Of a stretch of 64,000 nt of DNA, positions 2,432 through 44,576 are shown one piece after another. Positions within the stretch are counted from its first letter, which is position 1; every line of letters begins with the position of its first letter. The DNA is from Candidatus Acidiferrales bacterium. GTDB lineage: Bacteria; Acidobacteriota; Terriglobia; Acidiferrales; UBA7541. Location of the stretch: contig CAVXOG010000015.1 of assembly GCA_963763395.1 (NCBI GenBank), positions 156,235 through 220,234 of the forward strand. Direction: 5' to 3'. The notes under the pieces were generated by a model, which was not told the DNA's origin, ran no database searches, and saw only the letters and a list, made by a program, of their open reading frames with translations. The position numbers were made by a program, and so were the translations under genes.

Positions 2432-4609
2432 ATGGCGACCGACTTCAATTCGGCTTTGACTTCTCTTTCCCAAGAGCAGGCCAATGGCGGGAATGCTCAG
2501 CTGCCCGTAGCCCATCGGGAAGCAGTGGAACACGTCGCGCACGGGGACAGGCGGGTGGACGAATATGCGTGGCTGCGGCACAAAGAAGATCCCCGAGTAC
2601 TGGCTCATCTGAATGAAGAAAATGCTTATACCGATGCAATCCTGAAGCCGACCGAGGGACTGCAAGAAACGCTGTACCAGGAAATGCTGGGACGGATCCT
2701 GCAAACGGACTTGAGCGTGCCATCGCGACTGCGTGGGTACTCGTATTATTCGCGCACGATTGAGGGCAGGCAGTATCCGATCTATTGCCGAATTGTGGAA
2801 TCTGGCGATGCCCAGGCCACAACGGCCGATCCCACCAGTCATTCCGTTCCCGAAGAAGTGCTGCTGGACCTGAATGCGGTCGCTGAGGGGCATTCTTTTT
2901 TGGGGCTGGGCTGCTTTGAGGTGAGCGACGACAACCGCCAATTGGCCTACGCCACGGACACGACGGGATACCGGCAATATACCCTGGTGATAAAAGACCT
3001 TCAGATGGGAGAGCTACTTCCCTTCAGGGTGGAACGGGTAACCAGTGTGGCGTGGTCGGCAGACAATAGTGTTCTGTTCTACGTTATGGAAGACGAAACA
3101 ACAAAGCGTTCGCACCGGCTGTACAGGCATGTGTTGGGCTCAGGCGCTGCCGACGATCTGATTTACGAAGAGCCGGACGAGCGGTTCCGCATTGAGATCG
3201 AGCGGACACGAAGCGGAGCCTACTTGCTGCTTGTGGCCAACAGCCACACCACTAGCGAAGTGCGGTATCTGCGGGCGGACCAACCCTACGCAGAGTTCCA
3301 AGTGGTGGCAGTGAGAGAGGATGAACACGAGTATTCGGTCGATCATCATCCGGGAAGTTCGGACGACGCCTTTGGCGGGGTGTTCTTCGTGCGCACGAAC
3401 AGCAATGGCCGCACATTCCGCCTGATGACCGCTCCCACCATTGAACCTGCTCGCGAGCGCTGGCATGAAGTTGTGCCGAATCGTCCAGGCGTGATGCTGT
3501 CGGCGATCGCCTGCTTCCGCGATCACCTGGTGCTTTGCGAGCGGGAAGACGGATTGCCCTACCTGAGAATAGTCGATTTAACTCGGGCAGCAACCTCGGC
3601 GTTATCTGCTTCGCACCGCATTGAGTTTGCGGAACCTGCGTACAACGCGGTGTTTGGTGCAAATCCAGAGTTCGACACCGAGCATTTGCGATTCTCCTAC
3701 GAATCCTTCATTACGCCGCGTTCGGTTTACGACTACAACGTGAAGAGCGGTGAACGAGTGCTGCGCAAGCAACAACCCGTGCTTGGCGGCTACGACAATA
3801 CCCTCTACGGAAGCAAGAGGCTGCATGCGACAGCCGAAGATGGGACGCAAGTACCCTTATCGGTGGTGTATCGCCACGAATCGATTCGGGATGGCGGAGC
3901 GCCTTTGCTGCTCTACGCGTACGGAAGCTACGGAATCTCCATGCCGGTAACATTCAGTTCAAACCGTTTGAGCTTGCTCGACCGTGGTGTGATTTTTGTG
4001 ATTGCGCATATTCGTGGCGGGGGCGAGTTAGGCAAGCCATGGCACGACATGGGGCGAATGTACCATAAGATGAACACCTTCACGGATTTCATCGCGGCTG
4101 CAGAACATTTGATCGCTGAGGGTTATACGTCGAAAGACAAACTGGCCATTGAGGGCGGAAGCGCTGGCGGCCTGTTGATGGGTGCGGTCGTAAATCTGAG
4201 ACCAGATCTGTTCCGCCTGGTAATTTCGCACGTGCCGTTTGTGGATGTGTTGAACACGATGATGGACCCATCCCTGCCCCTGACGGTGGGAGAGTACGAG
4301 GAGTGGGGCAATCCTCAAGTGGAGCAGGATTACTTCTACATGAAGAAATATTGCCCTTACACCAACCTGGAGAAGAAAGACTATCCAACCATGCTGGTGA
4401 AAACGGGATTAAACGATAGCCAGGTGATGTACTGGGAGCCGTCGAAGTATGTGGCGAAACTAAGAGCGCTCAAGACCGACGCCAATTTACTTTTATTCAA
4501 GGTAAATATGGGGGCGGGCCATGGCGGTGCCAGCGGCCGATACGACTATTTACGCGAGATTGCGTTGGACTACGCATTTTTGCTGACGCAGATGGGTTTG
4601 GGAAATTGA
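2432..4609 (+). CDS. ptrB: Oligopeptidase B / S9A prolyl oligopeptidase family serine protease
   Basis: 725 aa. N-terminal propeller region (DEYAWLRHKEDPRVLAHLNEENAYT) and catalytic GGSAGGLLMG serine motif. Confidence 0.85.
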   Translation: MATDFNSALTSLSQEQANGGNAQLPVAHREAVEHVAHGDRRVDEYAWLRHKEDPRVLAHLNEENAYTDAILKPTEGLQETLYQEMLGRILQTDLSVPSRLRGYSYYSRTIEGRQYPIYCRIVESGDAQATTADPTSHSVPEEVLLDLNAVAEGHSFLGLGCFEVSDDNRQLAYATDTTGYRQYTLVIKDLQMGELLPFRVERVTSVAWSADNSVLFYVMEDETTKRSHRLYRHVLGSGAADDLIYEEPDERFRIEIERTRSGAYLLLVANSHTTSEVRYLRADQPYAEFQVVAVREDEHEYSVDHHPGSSDDAFGGVFFVRTNSNGRTFRLMTAPTIEPARERWHEVVPNRPGVMLSAIACFRDHLVLCEREDGLPYLRIVDLTRAATSALSASHRIEFAEPAYNAVFGANPEFDTEHLRFSYESFITPRSVYDYNVKSGERVLRKQQPVLGGYDNTLYGSKRLHATAEDGTQVPLSVVYRHESIRDGGAPLLLYAYGSYGISMPVTFSSNRLSLLDRGVIFVIAHIRGGGELGKPWHDMGRMYHKMNTFTDFIAAAEHLIAEGYTSKDKLAIEGGSAGGLLMGAVVNLRPDLFRLVISHVPFVDVLNTMMDPSLPLTVGEYEEWGNPQVEQDYFYMKKYCPYTNLEKKDYPTMLVKTGLNDSQVMYWEPSKYVAKLRALKTDANLLLFKVNMGAGHGGASGRYDYLREIALDYAFLLTQMGLGN

Positions 4610-4660: not shown

Positions 4661-7333
4661 ATGAGTGAAGCTTCAACGCCACTGATGCAACAGTACAACG
4701 GGGTGAAGTCCCGCTACCCGCATGCGCTGTTGCTATTTCGGTTGGGCGATTTCTACGAATTGTTTTACGAAGACGCGATCATCGCTTCGCGCGAACTGCA
4801 GATAACTCTTACTTCCCGGAACCGGGAAAAAGGACAGCCGATTCCCATGTGCGGCGTGCCCTATCACGCGGCAGACGGATATATCGCGCGGTTGATTCGG
4901 GCGGGCTTCAAAATAGCGATTTGCGAACAGATGGAATTGCCGGGACCGGGCAAGAAGCTCGTAAGGCGCGAAGTTACACGCGTAATTACGCCGGGCACAG
5001 CCACTGATGTTTCGGTGCTCGATGCCCGAGAAAACAATTTCCTGGCGGCGGTTTGGCAAGACTCGGCGAAAGCAAAGATTGGCCTTGCGCTGGTGGATTT
5101 GTCCACAGGCGATTTCCAGGCCACGGAGTTTTCCGGACCTGGGGCGGAAGATTCGTTGAGGGACGAATTGCAATTGGTACGGCCTCGAGAAACGCTGCTG
5201 CCACGGCCACAACAATTGTTTGAGACGGCAAAAACTTCCCTGCTGGAGGGAGCTGGCGGCGTCGAGACAAGGCTGGAAGAATGGATTTTTCACCTCGATT
5301 ATGGAGAACGAATCCTGCGAGAGCAGTTCGGCGTGGCAGAACTGACGGGCTTCGGGATGGATGGACATCCGCACGCGCTTTCTGCCGCTGGAGCGGTGGT
5401 GCACTACCTGCGCGAAAATTCGGCTCGAGGAGAAGACGGACCTAGTGTCGAGGCGCTGCGCCATCTCGATCACATTCGCTATTACCAACAGCATGAAGCG
5501 TTGCTTCTGGATCCCGTGTCGGTACGAAACCTGGAGCTCCTCTCACCGATTTTCAGCGAGGACAGTAAGGTAAGCGGACCAACGACACTGGTGGCCGCCC
5601 TGGATTCTACCGTGACCGGCATGGGCGCACGGCTTTTGCGAGCATGGGTCCTGAAACCGCTGATCGATCGAGATGCCATCGAAGAGAGGTTAGGGGCAGT
5701 AGGACATCTGCTGCAGCAGACCGTCGTTCGCGGAGAGATTCGAAAAGAGTTGCGCGGCATCCAGGATCTGGAGCGGTTGACGAGCCGGATCACACTGGGA
5801 TTGGCAACGCCGAGAGAATTGGTGGCCCTAAGGAAGTCGTTGGCGCAATTACCCATTTTGAAAAACTTCGTGACTCCGCCAGCAACTGGTGGAAGCGACT
5901 TGTTGCGGGAATTATATGGAGAGATCGATGAGTTAAGCGACGTACGCGAACGGCTGGAGAAAGCCGTCGCTGACGAACCTCCCGCCACAGCCAACGATCC
6001 GGGGATTATCCGCGGTGGATACAACGCCGAACTGGACGAACTGAGGAATTTGAGCCAGCACAGCAAGCAGATTATTGCTTCGATGGAGGAGCGCGAACGG
6101 AAACGAACGACAATCGGCTCACTGAAAATCCGATTCAACAACATTTTTGGGTATTACATTGAGATTTCGAAGGCGAACCTGCATCTGGCTCCCGCGGACT
6201 ACGAGAGAAAACAGACACTGGTGAACGCGGAACGATTCACGTCACCCGAACTGAAGGAGTACGAGCGAAAGATACTGGCGGCGGATGAACGTATCCTGGA
6301 AATTGAGCGCCAACTATTTGTGGACCTGCGCGCAGACATCGCGGCGAAAGCAGGACGGCTGCGACGAACGGCCGCCGCAATCGCACAACTTGATGTGCTG
6401 GCGTGCTTCGCGAAACTGGCGGCTGACCGCAACTATGTGCGGCCTGAGTTTAATGTACAGGGAGAGTTATTGATCGTCGGCGGGCGGCACCCCGTCATCG
6501 AAGAATTGCTACGAGGCAAGGGAGAGCGCTTCATCCCGAACGATCTCTGCTTTGAACCGAAATCGCAACAGTTGCTGCTGATCACCGGCCCGAATATGGG
6601 CGGTAAATCTACTTACCTACGGCAAACCGCGTTGATCGTGCTGATGGCACAGGCTGGATGCTTTGTTCCGGCACGGCAGGCGCGATTGCCATTAACTGAC
6701 AGGATCTTTACCCGGATTGGGGCCAGCGACAATCTGGCACGAGGGCGATCGACGTTTTTGGTAGAGATGAGTGAGGTGGCAGCGATTTTGCATCACGCCA
6801 CGCCAGCAAGCCTGGTATTGCTCGACGAGGTGGGGCGCGGAACATCGACCTTTGACGGGCTATCCATCGCTTGGGCTGTTGTCGAGCATCTCCAGAAGTA
6901 CACCAAGTCGCGCACGTTGTTCGCAACGCACTATCATGAATTGACGGAGCTTGGCGATTTGCTGCCGGGCGTGAAGAATGTCCATGTTTCTGTAAAAGAA
7001 ACTCCGAACGAGATCATCTTCTTGCGCAAGGTGGAACCGGGGAGCGCGGATAAAAGTTATGGGATTGAAGTAGCTCGGCTGGCAGGATTGCCGAAAAGCG
7101 TGATCGAGAGGGCGCGCGAGGTGTTAAGAAAGCACGAGCAGAGTGAACATGAGTTGAGCGAGACGCTTTCGCCCGGCGCGACGGAGTTTGGACATAAGAA
7201 TGGGAATCAGAACGTGTTGTTTACGGCGATCGATCGCGCCGTGATTGACAAGCTGCGCGGAGCGGACCTGGACGAGATGAAGCCAATTGATGCGCTAAAT
7301 CTGTTGGCGGAATTAAAGAAACAGGTCGAGTAA
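4661..7333 (+). CDS. mutS: DNA mismatch repair protein MutS
   Basis: 890 aa. TPLMQQY N-terminus, Walker A GPNMGGKST, and the DEVGRGTSTFDG and THYHEL motifs. Confidence 0.97.
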   Translation: MSEASTPLMQQYNGVKSRYPHALLLFRLGDFYELFYEDAIIASRELQITLTSRNREKGQPIPMCGVPYHAADGYIARLIRAGFKIAICEQMELPGPGKKLVRREVTRVITPGTATDVSVLDARENNFLAAVWQDSAKAKIGLALVDLSTGDFQATEFSGPGAEDSLRDELQLVRPRETLLPRPQQLFETAKTSLLEGAGGVETRLEEWIFHLDYGERILREQFGVAELTGFGMDGHPHALSAAGAVVHYLRENSARGEDGPSVEALRHLDHIRYYQQHEALLLDPVSVRNLELLSPIFSEDSKVSGPTTLVAALDSTVTGMGARLLRAWVLKPLIDRDAIEERLGAVGHLLQQTVVRGEIRKELRGIQDLERLTSRITLGLATPRELVALRKSLAQLPILKNFVTPPATGGSDLLRELYGEIDELSDVRERLEKAVADEPPATANDPGIIRGGYNAELDELRNLSQHSKQIIASMEERERKRTTIGSLKIRFNNIFGYYIEISKANLHLAPADYERKQTLVNAERFTSPELKEYERKILAADERILEIERQLFVDLRADIAAKAGRLRRTAAAIAQLDVLACFAKLAADRNYVRPEFNVQGELLIVGGRHPVIEELLRGKGERFIPNDLCFEPKSQQLLLITGPNMGGKSTYLRQTALIVLMAQAGCFVPARQARLPLTDRIFTRIGASDNLARGRSTFLVEMSEVAAILHHATPASLVLLDEVGRGTSTFDGLSIAWAVVEHLQKYTKSRTLFATHYHELTELGDLLPGVKNVHVSVKETPNEIIFLRKVEPGSADKSYGIEVARLAGLPKSVIERAREVLRKHEQSEHELSETLSPGATEFGHKNGNQNVLFTAIDRAVIDKLRGADLDEMKPIDALNLLAELKKQVE

Positions 7334-36680: not shown

Positions 36681-37766
36681 TCAGAAACCGAACAGCTTCC
36701 CTGCACCGATCACTAGCCCCAGAGTAAATACCGCAATGACGACTTCCCCGATGAAGCCGACGGCAAAGGGACGTAACCCTTGCTTGCGCATTTCCCTGAA
36801 GTTTGTGCGGAGACCGACACCCGCGAATGTCAACAGAAACGCCCAGCGGGAGAGATTGGCTAAAGCAGTGTTCTGATCTTTCGTAAAGAATCCAGCGGTA
36901 GCCAGTGCCGAGATCAGCAAAAAGCCCAAAACAAATTTAGGAAATTTCTGCCACAGAAATTTCGCCTTGTTACCGACAACCTGCGCCTGTCCTTTGCTGG
37001 CCCAGTAGATGGCGTACGCAAGCACGACAAAACCGATCAGCGCGTTGCGCGTCGTCTTGGTCAGCACCGCAAGTTTCGCCGCGGCATCGGAATAAAGCGC
37101 GCCCGCAGCCGTCGCTTCAGCAGTATTGTCCACGGCTAACCCCGCCCAAACGCCGTAAGCGTGATCGCTAAGGTGCAAGTAGTGGCCAATCAAGGGAAAC
37201 GTGAACAAGGAAATCGCGCCCAATGCCAGAATCGCGGCAATCGCGAAGGAAGAGTCTTCATCATCAGCCTCAATCGCGCCTTTCGTGGCAATGATGGCGC
37301 TGACGCCGCAAACCGCGGAGCCCACTGCCAGCAGCGTCGTGAGCTTCGGCCGCAGCCCGAACGCCCGTCCTAGCAGCGTCATGAACGCGATCGCGCCCGT
37401 GATCTCAATGCCCACAAGCAGGATGCTGACTCCGCCCAGCTTCCAGACATCGCCCAGCAAGAACCGCGAGCCGAGCAGCACGATTCCAGCCTTCAGCCAG
37501 AATTCATACGTCGCAACACCGGGCTTGAAAATCTCCGCAAGCCCGAAAATGTTCGAGATAGCCAAACCGATCAGGATCGCCCAGAGCACGTACTCGATGT
37601 TGGGAAAAATCAGGTGATGCGTTTTCGCGTAGAGATTGACGTTCCTCTCGAGCAACTTGCCGCCATAGCCGATTACGGCCAGCAACGCAATCCCGGGAAT
37701 CAGACGAAAACACTGGGTGCGTAACGATATGGGTGTTGCTTGTGGCAAAACGAGCGTCTCAGCCAT
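36681..37766 (-). CDS. YeiH/UPF0324 family membrane protein (putative sulfate-exporter family)
   Basis: 361 aa polytopic membrane protein with YeiH-like N-terminal and glycine-rich helices. Confidence 0.75.
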   Translation of the reverse strand: MAETLVLPQATPISLRTQCFRLIPGIALLAVIGYGGKLLERNVNLYAKTHHLIFPNIEYVLWAILIGLAISNIFGLAEIFKPGVATYEFWLKAGIVLLGSRFLLGDVWKLGGVSILLVGIEITGAIAFMTLLGRAFGLRPKLTTLLAVGSAVCGVSAIIATKGAIEADDEDSSFAIAAILALGAISLFTFPLIGHYLHLSDHAYGVWAGLAVDNTAEATAAGALYSDAAAKLAVLTKTTRNALIGFVVLAYAIYWASKGQAQVVGNKAKFLWQKFPKFVLGFLLISALATAGFFTKDQNTALANLSRWAFLLTFAGVGLRTNFREMRKQGLRPFAVGFIGEVVIAVFTLGLVIGAGKLFGF

Positions 37767-37950: not shown

Positions 37951-38727
37951 TCAAGAAATCAGCGCGTCCTGCAAGACTCCGGCATCTGCCGACTTCTCCA
38001 GCCAATCCGCGCCGGCAGAGACAATTGCGTCTGGCGCTACTACTCGCCCAACAATCAGGACGGTAGGCGCAGGCAATGGTGAAGTCTCTGCCAGTAAGGC
38101 GGCGGTCGATATCTGCGTAACTTGATCGGGCTGAGTAGCCTTGGAAACCAGCACGCACGGCGTCGCCGAGGGCACTCCCGCTTGCAGCAGCCAGTTCGAC
38201 ACCTCGGCATAATTTGGCCCAGGCATGTACACCACCACAGTGGTGTCCGTCGTGAGTGTGCTTCGAAGCAATTGTTGCGCTTCCGGTGAGCGCGAAAATG
38301 TGGTGAACAGAACATTAGAAGCCAGCGCTCTATCGGTCAGCGGTGCGCCCGCAGCGGCAGCCGCTCCAAACGCGGCGGAAATGCCCGGAACGATTTCAAA
38401 CTCGATCTCGGCTTCGCGAAGAGCGTGAATTTCTTCCGCGGCACGGCCAAACAGCAACGGATCGCCGCCTTTCAATCGAACAACCTGCGCATGTCGTCGC
38501 GCAGCAGCTATCAGTAAAGAATTGATGTCCGGTTGCGTGAGCAGTTTGTAGCCGTGGCGCTTACCCACATCAATGCGCTCGGCAGTCTCCGGGATGAGTC
38601 GCAGAGTTTCTTCGCTCACCAGCGAATCGTGCAGAACGATATCGGCGCTCTGGAGTATCCGGAACGCCTTGCGTGTGAGGAGTTCCGGATCGCCAGGACC
38701 CGCTCCTACTAGAAATACCTTTCCCAT
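37951..38727 (-). CDS. cobA: Uroporphyrinogen-III C-methyltransferase (SUMT)
   Basis: VFLVGAGPGDPELLT motif. ATG 38727 is preceded by AAGGAG at 7 nt. The track start at 38814 is a TTG extension. Confidence 0.88.
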   Translation of the reverse strand: MGKVFLVGAGPGDPELLTRKAFRILQSADIVLHDSLVSEETLRLIPETAERIDVGKRHGYKLLTQPDINSLLIAAARRHAQVVRLKGGDPLLFGRAAEEIHALREAEIEFEIVPGISAAFGAAAAAGAPLTDRALASNVLFTTFSRSPEAQQLLRSTLTTDTTVVVYMPGPNYAEVSNWLLQAGVPSATPCVLVSKATQPDQVTQISTAALLAETSPLPAPTVLIVGRVVAPDAIVSAGADWLEKSADAGVLQDALIS

Positions 38728-38870
38728 CAGGCGACTCCTTGCTTCGAATTGCTTGAATTTGCCTGTTCCATGAATTTCTCGAACATGGGCTGGCTTGCCA
38801 AAGCATGCAGCCAACGTTTCGTGGCCTCTGGTTCCGAGGTGAGTTTAAGGAATACGGGAAACAGGCTCAT
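38727..38870 (-). CDS. 47-aa ORF bridging sir and cobA
   Basis: My translation: MSLFPVFLKLTSEPEATKRWLHALASQPMFEKFMEQANSSNSKQGVA. Its ATG overlaps the sir TGA (ATGA). Its TGA overlaps the cobA ATG (TGATG). Confidence 0.45.
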   Translation of the reverse strand: MSLFPVFLKLTSEPEATKRWLHALASQPMFEKFMEQANSSNSKQGVA

Positions 38871-40585
38871 GGACGGTCCTCGATTGTGTGTGGCACCTGG
38901 TCTACGGGAATATCGCGAAGCGCTATTTCGACTTCGTCTGCAGGTTTGCCAGAAAGGACGGACCGCAGCGACTCAACAGAATGCCTGGCGAGAAATCGCT
39001 GCAACGATTCATCGTGACGGCGGTTGCCGTGGAAAAAGTTGAGCAGACGCGCAATAGCATCGGGCACTTCGATGGAAGCGCAGCGGAAGCCAATCGGACG
39101 GGCGATCGATGCAACATGGCCGACACTGCCGCCCACACAAAAGTAATACGCATCGACCAGCACGACGCCATCGAGTCTTACTTTTTTTCCTTCGATGCCA
39201 ATGTCCGCGATCCAGTGCTGGCCGCAGGAGTTCGGGCAGCCGGTGATGTGGATCCGTATGTCGTCCTGATAGCCAGGGAGTCGCTCTTCGAGCTGTTCTG
39301 TAAGCCAGCGAGCGAAGCCTTTTGTTTCGGTCAGCGCAAGCTTGCAAAATTCCGATCCCGTGCACGCAACCGTGCCGCGCACGAAAGAAGAGGTTTGCAC
39401 AGGAAGACCGGCGGCGGAGAGTTCCCGAACAACGGTCTGAACATGCTGTTCCGGGATGTTGATGAGCAGGAGGTTCTGCATCAGGGTAGCGCGGAGATGG
39501 CCGTCGGCGTAACGCTTGGTGAGGCTGGCGGCAATGCGCAACTGATCGGGCGTGATTCTGCCACGTACTACAGCAGCGCCAACGGAAAACAGGCCGCGTT
39601 GCTTTTGTGGAATTACACCAAGGTGATCGCGATGAACACCGGCAGGAAGTTCTTCCTCAACCGCGGGATCAAGTGCGTAACCAAGTTCGGCCTCGACAGC
39701 GCTAAGAAACGAATCTGCGGCCCAACCATGCTGCAGGAACAGATACTTCATACGAGCCCTCTTACGGGACTCTCGCAACGGATCACTGGCGCGAAATACA
39801 TTGGTGATTGCTCGCGCGACCGGAATCACCTGTTCCCATCGAATGAATGCATTCAGTTTGACAGCCAGATGAGGTTCGGTAGAAAGTCCGCCAGCGACGC
39901 GAACCGTGAACCCAATCTCCTCCCGGCCATCTGCGAACCGGCGGCTGGCGGTGAATCCGATGTCGTTAATTTCTGGATACGAACACCATTCGGGGCAACC
40001 GGTAATGGTGATTTTGAATTTACGCGGGAGATTGTAGAACTCAGGATTGCCACCCAGTTCTTTGTCCAGAGCTAGGGCAATCGAAGAGACGTCTGCGATC
40101 TCATGGGCATGTAGACCGGCAAGTGGGCAGCCCGTGATATTACGCACCACGTCACCGCAGGCCCCGGTAGTGCGCAAACCCACCTCCTGAAGGCGCTCGA
40201 GGATCTCAGGAATGTCTTCGATACGAATCCAATGGAGCTGGATGTTTTGCCGGACCGTAATGTCGGCCACACCATTTCCGTATTTATCAGAAAGCTCGGC
40301 AATGAGCAGGGTTTGCTCAGCGGTAAGGAGCCCATTAGGGATCCGTATCCGCACCATGAAGTACTGCACGGACTTCCCTTCACCGTTCTTGCCACCGACG
40401 ACTCCCAATCCATCACCCTGGGTATAAATGCCCCAAGAGCGGAAATAGGTTCCAAGCCATTCGGGTGGCACCGAATCGAAGCCCTTGCGTGCAAACTCGC
40501 GGATCTCATCCAGATGGTCCCAGGCATTCTTCTCGCGTTTCAGGCGTTCGACGCGCTCTGATTTGGTTTCCTGCGGTAATGACAT
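38867..40585 (-). CDS. sir: Sulfite (or nitrite) reductase hemoprotein, ferredoxin-type NirA/Sir family
   Basis: 572 aa. Siroheme/4Fe-4S cysteine clusters CTGSEFCKLA and ITGCPNSCGQ. GGAG lies 8 nt upstream of the ATG. Sulfite is preferred from context (cobA, Cys-rich leader). Confidence 0.88.
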   Translation of the reverse strand: MSLPQETKSERVERLKREKNAWDHLDEIREFARKGFDSVPPEWLGTYFRSWGIYTQGDGLGVVGGKNGEGKSVQYFMVRIRIPNGLLTAEQTLLIAELSDKYGNGVADITVRQNIQLHWIRIEDIPEILERLQEVGLRTTGACGDVVRNITGCPLAGLHAHEIADVSSIALALDKELGGNPEFYNLPRKFKITITGCPEWCSYPEINDIGFTASRRFADGREEIGFTVRVAGGLSTEPHLAVKLNAFIRWEQVIPVARAITNVFRASDPLRESRKRARMKYLFLQHGWAADSFLSAVEAELGYALDPAVEEELPAGVHRDHLGVIPQKQRGLFSVGAAVVRGRITPDQLRIAASLTKRYADGHLRATLMQNLLLINIPEQHVQTVVRELSAAGLPVQTSSFVRGTVACTGSEFCKLALTETKGFARWLTEQLEERLPGYQDDIRIHITGCPNSCGQHWIADIGIEGKKVRLDGVVLVDAYYFCVGGSVGHVASIARPIGFRCASIEVPDAIARLLNFFHGNRRHDESLQRFLARHSVESLRSVLSGKPADEVEIALRDIPVDQVPHTIEDRP

Positions 40586-40599
40586 TCAATTTGCTCCAG

Positions 40600-40641
40600 A
40601 AATACAAAAAGCCCACGTGGCCTGGAATCTGGCACGTGGGC
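40600..40641 (-). terminator. Intrinsic terminator 14 nt upstream of the sir start codon (candidate attenuator)
   Basis: Minus strand reads GCCCACGUG-(13 nt)-CACGUGGGC followed by UUUUUGUAUUU. Confidence 0.65.
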
Positions 40642-40667
40642 TTCGAGAGTCTTAGAGTGAAACTGAG

Positions 40668-40760
40668 CTAAGTTCGAATGCGCAACTGGCCAGAGCAATC
40701 AAGCGGACAACAACAGACGGTTGTCGCGCAGCAACAGATGCTCTGGCAGAAAGAATTCAT
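40668..40760 (-). CDS. Candidate regulatory leader peptide, 30 aa with 8 Cys
   Basis: My translation: ATG AAT TCT TTC TGC CAG AGC ATC TGT TGC TGC GCG ACA ACC GTC TGT TGT TGT CCG CTT GAT TGC TCT GGC CAG TTG CGC ATT CGA ACT TAG = MNSFCQSICCCATTVCCCPLDCSGQLRIRT. Confidence 0.5.
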   Translation of the reverse strand: MNSFCQSICCCATTVCCCPLDCSGQLRIRT

Positions 40761-40769
40761 ATCCGTTTT

Positions 40770-40798
40770 AGGGTACGTGCAGGTGAACTCGAAGTCAA
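40770..40798 (-). promoter_or_regulatory. Candidate promoter for the leader ORF / sir operon
   Basis: Minus strand has TTGACT (40798..40793), a 17-nt spacer, then TACCCT (40775..40770). The -10 element ends 9 nt before the leader ATG, so the transcript would be leaderless or nearly so. Confidence 0.35.
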
Positions 40799-40874
40799 TT
40801 GCGTCATGAATGCAATTATTGGATAAATTGAATTCAGAAATTGAATAGCTCAGAGAGTGGGGTAACTCTTCCTC

Positions 40875-40910
40875 TGCTGACCGGGGCGGACGAAGCCGCC
40901 CCCTTCAGCA
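40875..40910 (-). terminator. GC-rich stem-loop just after the cyclophilin stop (no U-tract)
   Basis: Minus strand reads UGCUGA-AG-GGGGCGG-cuucgu-CCGCCCC-GG-UCAGCA. Confidence 0.4.
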
Positions 40911-40918
40911 GGATAAAG

Positions 40919-41737
40919 TTACTGTGGCTTGGGAGCAGTACTAGCCGGCTTAGCGGCAGGCTTGGCGGTAGTCGCCGGTTTCGGCGCGGTAGCAGGTTTC
41001 GCGGGTGTAACGGCTACTCCGACGAGGGTTGCGGATTTAATGATATCCATCTTGGGATACTTCGTCTCAATGTACTTCTTGCCGCCCTTGGTAATGGCCT
41101 CCTGGTCCAAGTCGCCTCCGTACTGATCGTAAAACATATTGACGACCTTCATGCCGTCGCCATCGACAATGCCAAACGGTGTGAATCCCTGGTTGTCCAG
41201 CCCAGGATTGTCCTTCAAATTGATGAAGAGTTGTGTGGTGCGCGTGTTAGGACCAGCCGTTGCAAACGTAACAGTTCCCTTTTTGTTGCTCTGATTATGC
41301 GAGTCGTCCTTGATCGTGGCCTTTTCCCAAGCCGCAGCAACCGACGGGTAGGCGCTGATGCCAAACTGTGCCACGAACTCTGGTATCACGCGGAAAAAAC
41401 TGGCGTTGTCAAAATAATGGTGCTTCACCAGATTGTAAAAGCGATCCGCTCCCAGGGGCGCCCAGGCACGAGTGACGGTCATGGTAAATTCCCCGCGGGA
41501 AGTGTCGAATTTAACTTGAAATGAGACAGGAGCCACCTCTTTCAGCAACGCCGGCTTCAGCAGAGCCCGGTCATATGTGGCGGCAGCAGCAGGTTTCGCC
41601 GCAGTGGTAGTCGCTGCTTTGGGCTTCGCCGCAGGAGCGGGCGTACTTGCCGGCGCTTGTGCAAGCGCCAATGAGCCCATCGTCACAAAAGTGAATGCTA
41701 CAAATGCAGCATGACAAACTGACTTTGTGGAACGCAT
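40919..41737 (-). CDS. Secreted cyclophilin-type peptidyl-prolyl isomerase with Ala/Pro/Thr/Lys-rich termini
   Basis: Core blocks FYNLVKHHYFDNASFFRVIPEFVAQFG and GTVTFATAGPNTRTTQLFINL. Signal peptide present. GGAGGA SD. Confidence 0.88.
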   Translation of the reverse strand: MRSTKSVCHAAFVAFTFVTMGSLALAQAPASTPAPAAKPKAATTTAAKPAAAATYDRALLKPALLKEVAPVSFQVKFDTSRGEFTMTVTRAWAPLGADRFYNLVKHHYFDNASFFRVIPEFVAQFGISAYPSVAAAWEKATIKDDSHNQSNKKGTVTFATAGPNTRTTQLFINLKDNPGLDNQGFTPFGIVDGDGMKVVNMFYDQYGGDLDQEAITKGGKKYIETKYPKMDIIKSATLVGVAVTPAKPATAPKPATTAKPAAKPASTAPKPQ

Positions 41738-41950
41738 GTGAATGATTTCCTCCGATGGTACTAACGGTAATTAATTTGTTTCCTGGCCCACTCGGACCTT
41801 GTGCGTAGGCACTGGCAAACGCAATATGCCGCAATGCCTGTCCTCACTGAGACTTCCAATCAGCGAAGCCGCACCATAACCAACCGCATTCTATGTTAGG
41901 AGAGCGCTGGTAGGAAGTGTCTAACAAAGGCAGCGTGACCAAAAAGAAGC

Positions 41951-42682
41951 TTATTCCGCACCCGGAAACCCCAGCGGCATTTGGTCGGGTGGTAATCCCG
42001 CGGCAAGTTCGTCATGCAATCGGCGGCTCAAATCGTCGCGATGTTCAAACGCGTACTCTGCCGCGTTGATCGGTGCAAGAAATTCCACCAATATGTCGCC
42101 AGGACTGATCAAGAGGCTGCGCTTTTGCATGATGCGATGAGCGTTCGAGCAGGCGACCGGCACAATCGGCACACCCGCTTTAATCGCCATCACAGCTACT
42201 CCCTTTTTAAAATGTTGAAGACGTCCATCCGGGCTGCGCGTGCCTTCCGGATAAATCAGGAAGGACTGTCCTTGTCGCAAAGACTCCGTGGCCTGCTCGA
42301 GGCTGACGATCGCGGAATCTCGATTGAATCGATCGACCGGAATAAAATGCGCGAGAGTAAATGCCTGGCCGACGATCGGGTACCTAAACAGCGAGCGCTT
42401 CAGAAGAATGGCGATCCGCCGCGGAATAGCTCCGACCACGGCCGGCGCATCCGCGGAACTGGTGTGATTTGCCGCGAAAATGCACGTCTCAGGGGGTATG
42501 CGCTCAATTCCTTTGACGTGAACATGGACACCCACGCAATTGATGAAGAACATGACCCCGCGAATGGCCGCCCAATACAATGGCTCGACGTTTTTGGTGA
42601 TAGCGGTATAAATCAGCAGGGGCGGTCCCGCAATCAGGATATACAGTGTGATGGAGATGCAAATAAACGCTGCACGAAGCAT
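41951..42682 (-). CDS. plsC: 1-acyl-sn-glycerol-3-phosphate acyltransferase
   Basis: HxxxxD motif (ANHTSSADA) and the YPEGTRS block. Confidence 0.85.
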   Translation of the reverse strand: MLRAAFICISITLYILIAGPPLLIYTAITKNVEPLYWAAIRGVMFFINCVGVHVHVKGIERIPPETCIFAANHTSSADAPAVVGAIPRRIAILLKRSLFRYPIVGQAFTLAHFIPVDRFNRDSAIVSLEQATESLRQGQSFLIYPEGTRSPDGRLQHFKKGVAVMAIKAGVPIVPVACSNAHRIMQKRSLLISPGDILVEFLAPINAAEYAFEHRDDLSRRLHDELAAGLPPDQMPLGFPGAE

Positions 42683-42728
42683 GGATTGAGGAAACTTTCT
42701 CGAATCATACAGGAATCGTCAAGGCTTA

Positions 42729-44576
42729 TTACCGGGCATTGGCTGTAACCGGAGCCGTCGTGCCGTGGAGCAAACCCTCGCGAATATGTTTCTCGCGCTC
42801 CGTAGCGTGCGAAGATTCGGCCACCTGGTAGCGTTTCTCGCGAAGTTCTCCCAGTCGCACCGGGACGTCCTCCTCTTTCTCCGCGCCTGCGTGGCGCACG
42901 CGAAGAATGATTTCGTCGCCAATCTTCTGCGAAAGGACCCAGCGTTCCGGCCGCCTTGGAGGATCGCCGTTGTTCCACCTCAGGATTTCATCCCCAGTGC
43001 GCAATTGCGATTTGGTGGCGGGAGCTTCGGGATCGATGCTGCGAACAACGATCGGGCCATTCCCCTGATTTTCGACGGCAAAGCCAAGGATCGGACGGAC
43101 AGTTTCGCGAGCGCGCAATTCTAATCCGCTGAGGGCAAAGACCTGGTCATACGGTAACGGCACGGCGCCACTGACGTAGTCTTTGAAGAATTCGCCCAGC
43201 GAAGCGCCTGTCACTTTTTCCGCGGTAAGGCGAACGTCCAGGCTGTCACGGTAGAACTTTCCTTCCTTGGCAAACTCCGTGTTCATGGCACGCAACACAT
43301 CATCGAGGCTCTTCTGGTTATCCGTTCGATCTCGAATGACAATGTCCAGGAGCACCCCGAGGACCTGCCCCTTTGTGTAATACGAAACGCTCCGTTGCGG
43401 TTGCGTGTACAGGGCGTACTTTTCCAACCAGGCGTCCAGGCTGGATTCTTCGGCACTCTGCCATTGCTCTGCGGGACTAGCCTCAATCTCGCTGATCTGA
43501 CTGCCCAAATCCTGGTAGAACTCCTGTTTGCTCCACAACCCCGTACGCACCAACGTATAGGAACCGTACGTGTTCGTAACCCCTTCGGCAAACCACAGAG
43601 AGCGTGTGTACATCTCTCGCGTGTAATCGACAGGCTCGAGCGTTGCCGGCCGGATACGTTTTACATTCCAAAGATGAAAAAACTCATGAGCGGATACATT
43701 CCACATGTAGGCATCGGAGGGAACGAAAATAGCCGTGGAGTTCGCATGTTCCATCCCACCACCCGAGCCCGCAGCCGCTTTCCCCACGTGGAACAGGAAT
43801 GTGTATTTCTGGTAGGGGGCTCCCTCCATTAATTTAAGCTCGTAAGCACAAATCTTGCGCAGCGCGTTCTCCACGTCGTGTTTCTTGTAATTGTTCCCAT
43901 GAATCACCACCTCGACAGGTGGAGTGAGGTCGTGAATCGTGAATTGCTCAAAGTTAGATGCTTCAATGGGCGCATCTGCCAGGGCATCGTAGCTCGGGGC
44001 TTTCAGTAGCGTCCCGTCGCTTTGATTCGCAACCAATGCCGACGACGCCACTTTCCATCCGGCCGGAATATCCTGCAATACCAGAGAGCAATCCTCGCTG
44101 CGCCGATCGGGCACGTACAGAAGGATCATTACTGGGTTAACGAAAGCATGTTCGGAATTCAATTGCGTGCTGAATGGCCCAACGTCGTCCCAGAACGTCG
44201 CGTACGTCACTTTTACGGTTCCAGTCGCGTTAACCTGCCAAGTCAGCTTGTCGAGCTTGGTGACGCCAACTTTCTGGCCATCTGCGAACGCTTCCACTTG
44301 CTGCACGTGGCTGCTGAAATCGCGAATCTCATACAGGGCGTTCCAGGCAGCCATTTGTAGCTTCAGTTCACCGTGCACATCCGGAATTTCGACCATCACC
44401 CTGAAAAGGTGCTGCTCCGGGTGCACCAGAGAAACGGTGTAGCGAATGGCAGCCGACGAAGGCTGCGTGAACAGCGCTAGTAGCGTCAGAGCCACAACCG
44501 CAATCTGCCAACGGCGATGCCTGATCACCTTGCCGTGAAATGGGATGCCCGCATTGGCAGAACCGCGAAACGCCAT
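42729..44576 (-). CDS. M61 family glycyl aminopeptidase with a C-terminal PDZ domain
   Basis: HEFFHLWNVKR zinc motif. ATG 44576 shares its A with the mpl TGA (TGATG). A signal-like segment follows the start. The track start at 44639 lies inside mpl. Confidence 0.85.
   Translation of the reverse strand: MAFRGSANAGIPFHGKVIRHRRWQIAVVALTLLALFTQPSSAAIRYTVSLVHPEQHLFRVMVEIPDVHGELKLQMAAWNALYEIRDFSSHVQQVEAFADGQKVGVTKLDKLTWQVNATGTVKVTYATFWDDVGPFSTQLNSEHAFVNPVMILLYVPDRRSEDCSLVLQDIPAGWKVASSALVANQSDGTLLKAPSYDALADAPIEASNFEQFTIHDLTPPVEVVIHGNNYKKHDVENALRKICAYELKLMEGAPYQKYTFLFHVGKAAAGSGGGMEHANSTAIFVPSDAYMWNVSAHEFFHLWNVKRIRPATLEPVDYTREMYTRSLWFAEGVTNTYGSYTLVRTGLWSKQEFYQDLGSQISEIEASPAEQWQSAEESSLDAWLEKYALYTQPQRSVSYYTKGQVLGVLLDIVIRDRTDNQKSLDDVLRAMNTEFAKEGKFYRDSLDVRLTAEKVTGASLGEFFKDYVSGAVPLPYDQVFALSGLELRARETVRPILGFAVENQGNGPIVVRSIDPEAPATKSQLRTGDEILRWNNGDPPRRPERWVLSQKIGDEIILRVRHAGAEKEEDVPVRLGELREKRYQVAESSHATEREKHIREGLLHGTTAPVTANAR

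Follow-up and report, generated by a model that had tools for sequence, protein, structure and literature searches.

The cysteine-rich leader of the sir operon

We analysed the leader of a minus-strand operon in a 64-kb stretch of DNA (64,000 nucleotides (nt), hereafter the window) from Candidatus Acidiferrales bacterium, a member of the Acidobacteriota (contig CAVXOG010000015.1, positions 156,235 to 220,234). Read along the minus strand, the locus comprises a peptidyl-prolyl isomerase (PPIase) gene (41737..40919), promoter-like boxes, a short leader open reading frame (ORF), a hairpin at its stop codon, an intrinsic terminator and sir, which encodes a sirohaem-dependent reductase. An earlier reading of the letters alone, the original prediction, had proposed that these parts form a cysteine-sensing attenuator. 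Its coordinates and pairings all proved correct when we re-read the sequence, and the proposal itself is supported below by conservation, by alternative pairing and by a model of ribosome position.

The leader ORF (40760..40668, minus strand) has 30 codons plus a stop and, as read and translated from the sequence, encodes MNSFCQSICCCATTVCCCPLDCSGQLRIRT. As predicted, eight of its 30 codons specify cysteine (codon 5, codons 9-11, codons 16-18 and codon 22), including two runs of three, TGT TGC TGC at 40736..40728 and TGT TGT TGT at 40715..40707. The chance expectation in the window for ATG-initiated ORFs of 20-60 codons with at least 8 Cys per 30 codons is 0.0014, and no other short intergenic ORF of the window carries Cys runs of this kind. 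Upstream lies a candidate promoter (40798..40770, minus strand) with a -35 box TTGACT (40798..40793), a 17-nt spacer and a -10 box TACCCT (40775..40770). From the end of the -10 box to the leader ATG there are 9 nt, and they contain no Shine-Dalgarno (SD) motif. A generic promoter scan did not list this promoter, because the -10 box matches at only three of six positions.

The intrinsic terminator (40644..40600, minus strand) consists of a 5' arm GAAGCCCACGUGCC (40644..40631), a loop, a 3' arm GGCCACGUGGGCUU(U) (40622..40608) and a U-tract that reads UUUUUGUAUUU in the sequence (40610..40600). The hairpin spans 14 bp at -23.8 kcal/mol; the 9-bp stem described originally (40641..40611), which begins 26 nt past the leader stop codon, is its core. 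Compared with dinucleotide shuffles, the terminator region has a z-score of -4.05 and the 190-nt leader one of -3.85, with none of 200 shuffles as good, while a generic terminator scan picks up no more than the apical 5 bp. Between the end of the U-tract and the sir ATG (40585) lie 14 nt, which include a GGAG motif at 40597..40594.

Besides the terminator, the leader RNA is predicted to form hairpin P1 (-28.3 kcal/mol) and an antiterminator (-19.6 kcal/mol), which shares one strand with P1 and the 5' arm with the terminator. P1 is formed on the minus strand by segment 1 (CUGCCAGAGCA, 40749..40739), which immediately precedes the first Cys run and falls within the footprint of a ribosome stalled there, and segment 2 (UGCUCUGGCCAG, 40697..40686), which includes the Ser-Gly codons UCU GGC at 40694..40689 and can pair with either segment 1 or segment 3. 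This stem around the Cys runs, already part of the original prediction, is present in the minimum free energy (MFE) structure of the window leader. A second hairpin, P2 (40678..40642, minus strand; UUCGA-ACUUAG ... CUAAG-acu-CUCGAA), holds the UAG stop codon (40670..40668) in its 5' arm, folds alone at -5.0 kcal/mol and is nested in the antiterminator. The antiterminator (2:3; 40694..40628, minus strand) joins an outer helix, UCUGGC (40694..40689) with GCCAGA (40633..40628), to inner pairs that enclose P2, and takes 11 of the 14 nt of the terminator 5' arm. The original prediction had noticed the hexamer pairing and saw no convincing antiterminator; that verdict does not stand, as the hexamers are the conserved core of a longer 2:3 helix around P2.

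An Rfam 15 scan of 38000..43000 at E-values up to 10, covering families that include amino-acid leaders, T-box, SAM riboswitches, Acido-1 and Acido-Lenti-1, returned four chance-level matches only (15.9-18.2 bits against thresholds of 43-73); none fell inside the leader region and no family reached its gathering threshold. Directly after the PPIase stop (window 40866-40930) there is a further GC-rich hairpin, GGGGGCGG-cuucgu-CCGCCCC, without a U-tract and with only chance-level Rfam matches (mir-1744, Sso133; E of 4-9), which may be a 3' end structure of the upstream gene.

Together with its SD motif GGAG, sir occupies 40597..38867 on the minus strand and encodes a 572-amino-acid sirohaem Fe-S reductase of the NirA/Sir family. 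It is followed on the same strand by a cobA-like uroporphyrinogen-III C-methyltransferase gene (38814..37951) and a gene for a YeiH-family putative sulfate-export transporter (37766..36681), both assigned by domain or family match. The predicted sir-cobA-yeiH order is borne out, with the first product read as a NIR_SIR/NirA-family sulfite or nitrite reductase. That product contains the Pfam domains NIR_SIR and NIR_SIR_ferr; its best NCBIfam models are ferredoxin-nitrite reductase (377 bits) and the NirA family (373 bits), both below cut-off, and it falls far short of the CysI and Sir equivalog models. The company of a Cys leader, cobA and a YeiH 'sulfate export' transporter argues that the NirA-family enzyme (38867-40585) is a sulfite reductase, for which NirA/SirA of Mycobacterium tuberculosis is a comparable case. 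Among 80 related loci, cobA follows sir on the same strand in 70, and yeiH likewise in 14.

Conservation and alternative pairing in related leaders

These relatives came from a scan with the Sir protein over one genome per species, and were thus chosen by Sir homology alone. Almost all are metagenome-assembled genomes of Terriglobia-type Acidobacteriota, with 57-72% Sir identity. Just upstream of sir, 72 of these 80 loci carry a short ORF that is 26-32 codons long (median 30) and contains 4-10 Cys (median 7.5); these 72 underlie the promoter and ORF counts, and 70 of the leaders entered the detailed analysis. A typical leader peptide reads M..SNLRQ.CMCACCCCACVCSGAGRLLT. Cysteine accounts for about 25% of leader residues versus 2.0% in Sir, and the non-Cys residues drift. 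Conservation in relatives had been suggested as a check on the element, and both the Cys-rich ORF and, in 70 of 70 leaders, the terminator are kept. Codon choice in the two reading frames differs as well: Cys codons of leaders are 59% UGU (309 UGU, 212 UGC), whereas those of the adjacent sir genes are 91% UGC (747 versus 76). Wobble decoding that is slower, and so makes for a sharper sensor, could explain the UGU bias, as could a need for a weakly structured Cys run.

The promoter arrangement is conserved alongside the ORF. Of the 72 homologous leaders, 67 have a TTGACN box, a spacer of 16-18 nt and TAnnnT ahead of the ORF; in 63 the distance from the end of the -10 box to the leader ATG is 7-10 nt, and only six show an SD-like motif before that ATG. 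With so short a spacing and so few SD motifs, the leader is probably translated from a leaderless or near-leaderless message; judging from promoter spacing, its 5' untranslated region would be at most 3 nt. Both the TTGACT-17-TACCCT promoter and the near-leaderless start of the original prediction are strengthened by these counts.

The hairpin and U-tract of the terminator (median, 13 bp and -24.7 kcal/mol) begin 21-31 nt past the leader stop in all 70 leaders. Distances from terminator to sir ATG are far more variable, from 0 to >200 nt, and several loci have no SD motif at all. The original prediction had held that there is no room for a promoter between terminator and sir, which agrees with the 14 nt in the window and with the 0-10 nt that separate the U-tract from the sir ATG in several relatives. 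In eight loci (L016, L017, L026, L035, L046, L053, L059 and L071) the ATG directly follows the U-tract without an SD motif (for example, GGGUUUUUCUUUUUAUGGCAGAA; at about 2985-3001 in most of them), so sir translation there must begin SD-less, on a U-rich leader.

Variation in this distance bears on whether the element acts on transcription or on translation. If the Cys-rich ORF gated access to the sir SD and AUG, with the hairpin serving mainly as a translational sequester rather than a terminator, one could point to Ms5788A, a validated cysteine precedent that works in this way (10.1101/834739), to the window MFE structure, in which the SD region CUGGAGCAAAUUGA pairs with sequence just past the leader stop, and to the several loci in which the terminator adjoins the sir start codon. 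What is conserved, however, is a GC-rich hairpin with a U-tract in 70 of 70 leaders and not SD pairing; the hairpin keeps no fixed distance from a start codon that in several loci lacks an SD motif and in eight abuts the U-tract; and the conserved alternative pairing is aimed at the terminator 5' arm. We consider translational attenuation as the main mode of control unlikely, while SD occlusion may contribute beside transcription attenuation.

Across the 70 leaders, four complementary segments recur, namely segment 1 (GCCAGA-like), segment 2 (UCUGGC(G)), segment 3 ((C)GCCAGA) and segment 4 (UCUGGCGGUGGG), in a 1:2 / 2:3 / 3:4 topology. Segment 1 lies early in the ORF, segment 3 at the top of the terminator 5' arm, and the U-tract follows segment 4. 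Segment 2, the "Ser-Gly" codons, sits 26 nt before the end of the stop codon with its frame fixed in 64 of 70 leaders. The five core 2:3 pairs are 96-99% canonical, and the whole 13-pair 2:3 register is 73% canonical versus 36-45% after a slide of 1-3 nt. All 16 leaders of the window clade have the 1:2 pairing GCCAGA:UCUGGC. In unconstrained full-length folds every one of the 70 leaders formed the terminator, on average with 99% of its base pairs, and 63 of 70 had segment 2 in an upstream pairing (P1); P1 encloses 92% of the Cys codons.

We assessed pairing not with a covariance model but through gapless comparisons of anchored sequences and constrained folds of each leader. RNAalifold on a MAFFT alignment of the 70 leaders recovered only six basal terminator pairs, since two clades differ in stem register and have segment 1 at different codons; run by clade, it found P1, P2 and P3 in the window clade and only the terminator and a P2-like helix in the majority clade. 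Classical covariation is sparse because the helix cores are nearly invariant, but changes that preserve pairing do occur. In the divergent L072, all partners have changed together, giving GUCAGA/UCUGAC in all four segments, and L054, L055, L077, L026 and L074 build the same architecture of three hairpins and an alternative hairpin from other sequences. G-U replacements are found in all helices, and P2 shows compensatory changes in both clades (pair 29-61, UA 20, UG 20 and CG 4; pair 28-68, CG 12 and GC 3; pair 30-66, AU 5, GC 5 and GU 3).

The Ser-Gly codons of segment 2 illustrate the level at which selection acts. The first codon has the form xCU (TCT in 46 leaders, ACT in 13, GCT in eight and CCT in one, encoding S, T, A and P), and GGC comes next in 63 of 70. 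As the nucleotides are fixed while the encoded residue varies, the pattern points to constraint on the motif as RNA rather than as peptide.

To see how far this architecture extends, we scanned metagenome contigs with a pattern made up of segments 2, 3 and 4 and the U-tract only, with no Cys codon specified. Of the 120 loci returned, 117 contain an in-frame ORF that is 21-33 codons long and has 4-11 Cys (median 8), and these encode 110 distinct peptides. A pattern free of Cys codons thus retrieved Cys-rich ORFs almost exclusively, and the way in which the first 80 loci had been selected does not account for the link between RNA structure, ORF and sulfur-assimilation genes. The gene directly downstream is sir in 98 of the 120, a CysG-like sirohaem synthase (NAD_binding_7, Sirohm_synth_M and TP_methylase) in nine, CysH (PAPS_reduct) in three and a Porin_5 protein in one; in the other nine the contig ends too early to tell. 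The CysG-like loci are L081, L098, L102, L112, L118, L129, L133, L159 and L163, the cysH loci L117, L121 and L176, and the porin locus L138, and the leader peptides at these non-sir loci are distinct (for example, MSLSRQMCCRCCCCCCTCVHTGAGELLT and MFSNQNPGAGCVCCCRPFACSGAGVLLS). In all, the device is conserved in about 190 soil Acidobacteriota sequences.

These observations also weigh on two further explanations. The first is that the ORF is an independent gene for a Cys-rich peptide, binding metal or sulfur or serving as the precursor of a ribosomally synthesized and post-translationally modified peptide (RiPP), with its own terminator and with sir expressed by constitutive leak-through. The conserved length of about 30 residues and of some non-Cys residues (SG and a final T) would fit such a gene, and Canestrari et al. 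left open a separate role for peptides of this type (10.1101/834739). The conserved non-Cys codons, however, are fixed as nucleotides, with varying residues, and are sited in helices; what comes directly after the element is always a gene of sulfur assimilation, across four different contexts; no space is left in which sir could have its own promoter; and no maturase or partner gene lies nearby. We regard an independent peptide gene as very improbable, and rejected a RiPP, SCIFF or metallothionein-like gene on the missing maturase and the nucleotide-level constraint.

The second explanation takes the GCCAGA/TCTGGC hexamers for DNA operators at which a transcription factor would act on a sulfur regulon as roadblock or repressor, with the Cys ORF incidental. 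Four hexamer copies in alternating orientation, and segments 3 and 4 forming a near-perfect palindrome, are what such operators might look like. Yet repeated G-U-type changes keep the RNA pairing and break the DNA palindrome, divergent members stay complementary with entirely different sequences, a U-tract always follows segment 4, and the in-frame Cys-rich ORF accompanies 117 of 120 structure-only matches. The chance that the hexamers are operators seems to us minimal, and we rejected a GCCAGA-repeat operator on the G-U changes and on the divergent yet complementary sequences.

A small number of loci depart from the common form. Eight of the 80 Sir-selected loci have no Cys leader, among them L032 and L048 (labelled Methylomirabilota or uncultured bacterium), which have instead, about 300-130 nt upstream of sir, a 69-amino-acid ORF with two CPxC motifs (CPNCKTRI...CPRCKIW) of zinc-ribbon-like appearance. 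L009 and L011, in the window clade, have degenerate leaders with only three Cys (for example, MNLIRQMLRCAGATNAACCLASISGQGDSRT) that may be decaying or less sensitive attenuators, and L012 resembles a frameshifted leader copy. In L057 (7020-7400) there is a second, unrelated polycysteine small ORF (sORF), MIKIPSQCCCCTAPCAGCCRPLCI, at 7055..7129, with its own TTGGCA-17-TATCAT promoter-like sequence ending 10 nt before the ATG and no clear terminator seen. It lies about 250 nt upstream of a secreted-protein gene that by eye is of the carboxypeptidase-regulatory or TonB-receptor type.

Ribosome position and the proposed cysteine switch

We next modelled the effect of a ribosome on the leader by masking 28 nt around the A-site Cys codon and folding the transcript at the stage when polymerase has reached the terminator loop and segment 4 is still to be made. 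Pairs spanning the ribosome were either allowed or forbidden, and the allowed variant under-calls antitermination at late Cys codons. With spanning pairs forbidden, the 3' part of the ORF sequestered 5 nt or more of the terminator 5' arm for 94% of the 521 Cys positions; counted by leader, this occurred in 68 of 70 for a stall at the first Cys codon and in 69 of 70 for one at the middle Cys codon. With spanning pairs allowed, sequestration occurred in 69 of 70 leaders when the ribosome was stalled, compared to 22 of 70 when it was at the stop codon. At least 8 nt were sequestered in 64 of 70 leaders, against 14-33 of 70 after shuffling of the intervening sequence (20 sets). For the window leader, a ribosome on a Cys codon gave the antiterminator, whereas a ribosome at the stop codon left the whole 5' arm free and allowed P1 to form. 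Folding with ribosome-covered codons had been proposed as a check on the element, and in this thermodynamic model a Cys stall does free segment 2 to sequester the terminator 5' arm.

From the sequences and from this model, we consider it likely that the element belongs to the classical ribosome-mediated leader-peptide attenuators of transcription, with charged tRNA-Cys as its signal. Its parts and their mutually exclusive complementarity are observed, as are their conservation and the company of sulfur-assimilation genes; where transcription starts, the kinetics and how the switch responds to cysteine in vivo are the portions of the mechanism that we infer. Transcription would start 0-3 nt before the leader AUG at the conserved sigma-70-type promoter, and a ribosome would load on the leaderless or near-leaderless ORF. 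When cysteine is plentiful, the ribosome would pass all eight Cys codons, reach the UAG and sit on the stop-codon hairpin, keeping segment 2 off segment 3. Segment 1 (GCCAGAGCA) would then re-pair with segment 2 (UGCUCUGGC) behind the ribosome, leaving segment 3 free for segment 4; the 14-bp terminator and its U-tract would form, and polymerase would stop about 15 nt before sir. When Cys-tRNA is scarce, the ribosome would stall in the Cys runs, covering segment 1 or separating it from segment 2. Segment 2 and the 3' end of the ORF would capture the terminator 5' arm as it emerges, enclosing P2, the terminator would come too late to form, and polymerase would read into sir-cobA-yeiH, supplying sulfide and sirohaem for cysteine synthesis.

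Several findings weigh against this mechanism. Once segment 4 is present, the terminator stays the MFE fold in 66 of 70 stalled leaders; with the terminator the equilibrium winner even under a stall, the decision must be kinetic, as it is in the E. coli trp attenuator, where the terminator likewise wins at equilibrium. Even after shuffling, 5 nt or more are sequestered in 54% of cases, and since all segments are GC-rich, the duplex energies stand out only modestly from those of shuffles (median z-score, -1.7 for 2:3 and -2.3 for 1:2). The window 2:3 helix has only six contiguous base pairs, no more than 39 of 70 leaders have P2 in their MFE structure, and strict covariation is confined to a handful of divergent sequences. 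To these must be added the weak TACCCT box that the promoter scan passed over, the eight of 80 related sir loci without a leader, and the relatedness of the sequences, which inflates the counts.

Cys-leader attenuators before sir, CysG-like, cysH and porin genes suggest a cysteine attenuation regulon. We raise as a possibility, and a somewhat doubtful one, that in Terriglobia-type Acidobacteriota the assimilatory sulfate-reduction genes form a ribosome-sensed regulon, each with a leaderless polycysteine ORF and a terminator/antiterminator switch, whose members would be sir-cobA, sirohaem synthase, cysH, the porin and perhaps TonB-type uptake genes. If true, this would be the first classical transcription-attenuation regulon for cysteine. 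By analogy with rnTrpL and peTrpL of Sinorhizobium, the terminated leader RNA of about 160 nt, or its Cys-rich peptide, might also act in trans.

Comparison with known attenuation systems

Acidobacteriota are among the most abundant bacteria in soil, and their gene regulation is poorly known. Almost no attenuator predicted in Acidobacteria by Naville and Gautheret had an assigned function (PMC2965389), and our full-text literature searches found no cysteine attenuator described in Acidobacteriota or upstream of sulfite reductase. The element offers a concrete, testable switch for sulfur assimilation in this phylum, and its Cys leader ties the YeiH transporter and the porin to sulfur metabolism. 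In terms of annotation, about 190 unannotated small ORFs could enter gene annotation and Rfam-type libraries.

Attenuation through cysteine leader ORFs already has precedents (10.1101/834739; PMC8632094), and its known versions are limited to the translational polycysteine sORFs of mycobacteria and a predicted cysS leader in Rhodobacterales. Canestrari et al. (2020), who stated that to their knowledge no cysteine attenuation mediated by an upstream ORF had been described before, reported translational attenuation by leaderless polycysteine sORFs, Ms5788A and others (10.1101/834739). Earlier, Seliverstov et al. (2005) had listed candidate Cys leader peptides in Actinobacteria "without obvious terminators" (PMC1262725). 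The Rhodobacterales case, uORFC-8-2 of Brewer et al. (2021), is likewise a prediction only and lies upstream of cysS (PMC8632094). Compared by description only, it resembles the acidobacterial element in placing its Cys codons within the first stem and in ending with a hairpin and a U run, but has just two tandem Cys codons (positions 14-15), controls cysS and belongs to alpha-proteobacteria.

Like the mycobacterial sORFs, the acidobacterial leaders are leaderless (here probably so, as judged by promoter spacing), contain runs of Cys codons and precede cysteine and sulfur operons, and in both cases several operons carry such ORFs, consistent with a regulon driven by ribosome stalling. At least two consecutive Cys codons in a probably leaderless sORF are found here as in the mycobacterial type, whereas SD pairing in the absence of a terminator is not. 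Ms5788A acts on translation by SD sequestration; in Acidobacteriota, a terminator/antiterminator is the conserved core. The phyla differ and no homology is evident. The pairing of a leaderless start with a polycysteine run would have arisen recurrently in unrelated phyla.

The closest match in design is to the trpL, hisL, leuL, thrL, pheL and ilv leaders of E. coli and Salmonella. These share with the acidobacterial element a short ORF rich in codons for the end product, an intrinsic terminator that immediately precedes the first structural gene, a decision set by ribosome position, and four segments with exclusive 1:2, 2:3 and 3:4 pairings in which the terminator is more stable than the antiterminator. 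In contrast to them, it senses cysteine, is found in Acidobacteriota rather than Proteobacteria, is apparently leaderless with no SD motif, encloses an extra stop-codon hairpin in its antiterminator and has no sequence similarity to any Rfam leader family. The element takes cysteine sensing by leader ORFs beyond the translational devices known in mycobacteria, into the canonical terminator/antiterminator design, and is a new family of leader-peptide transcription attenuation that combines this switch with a leaderless polycysteine ORF.

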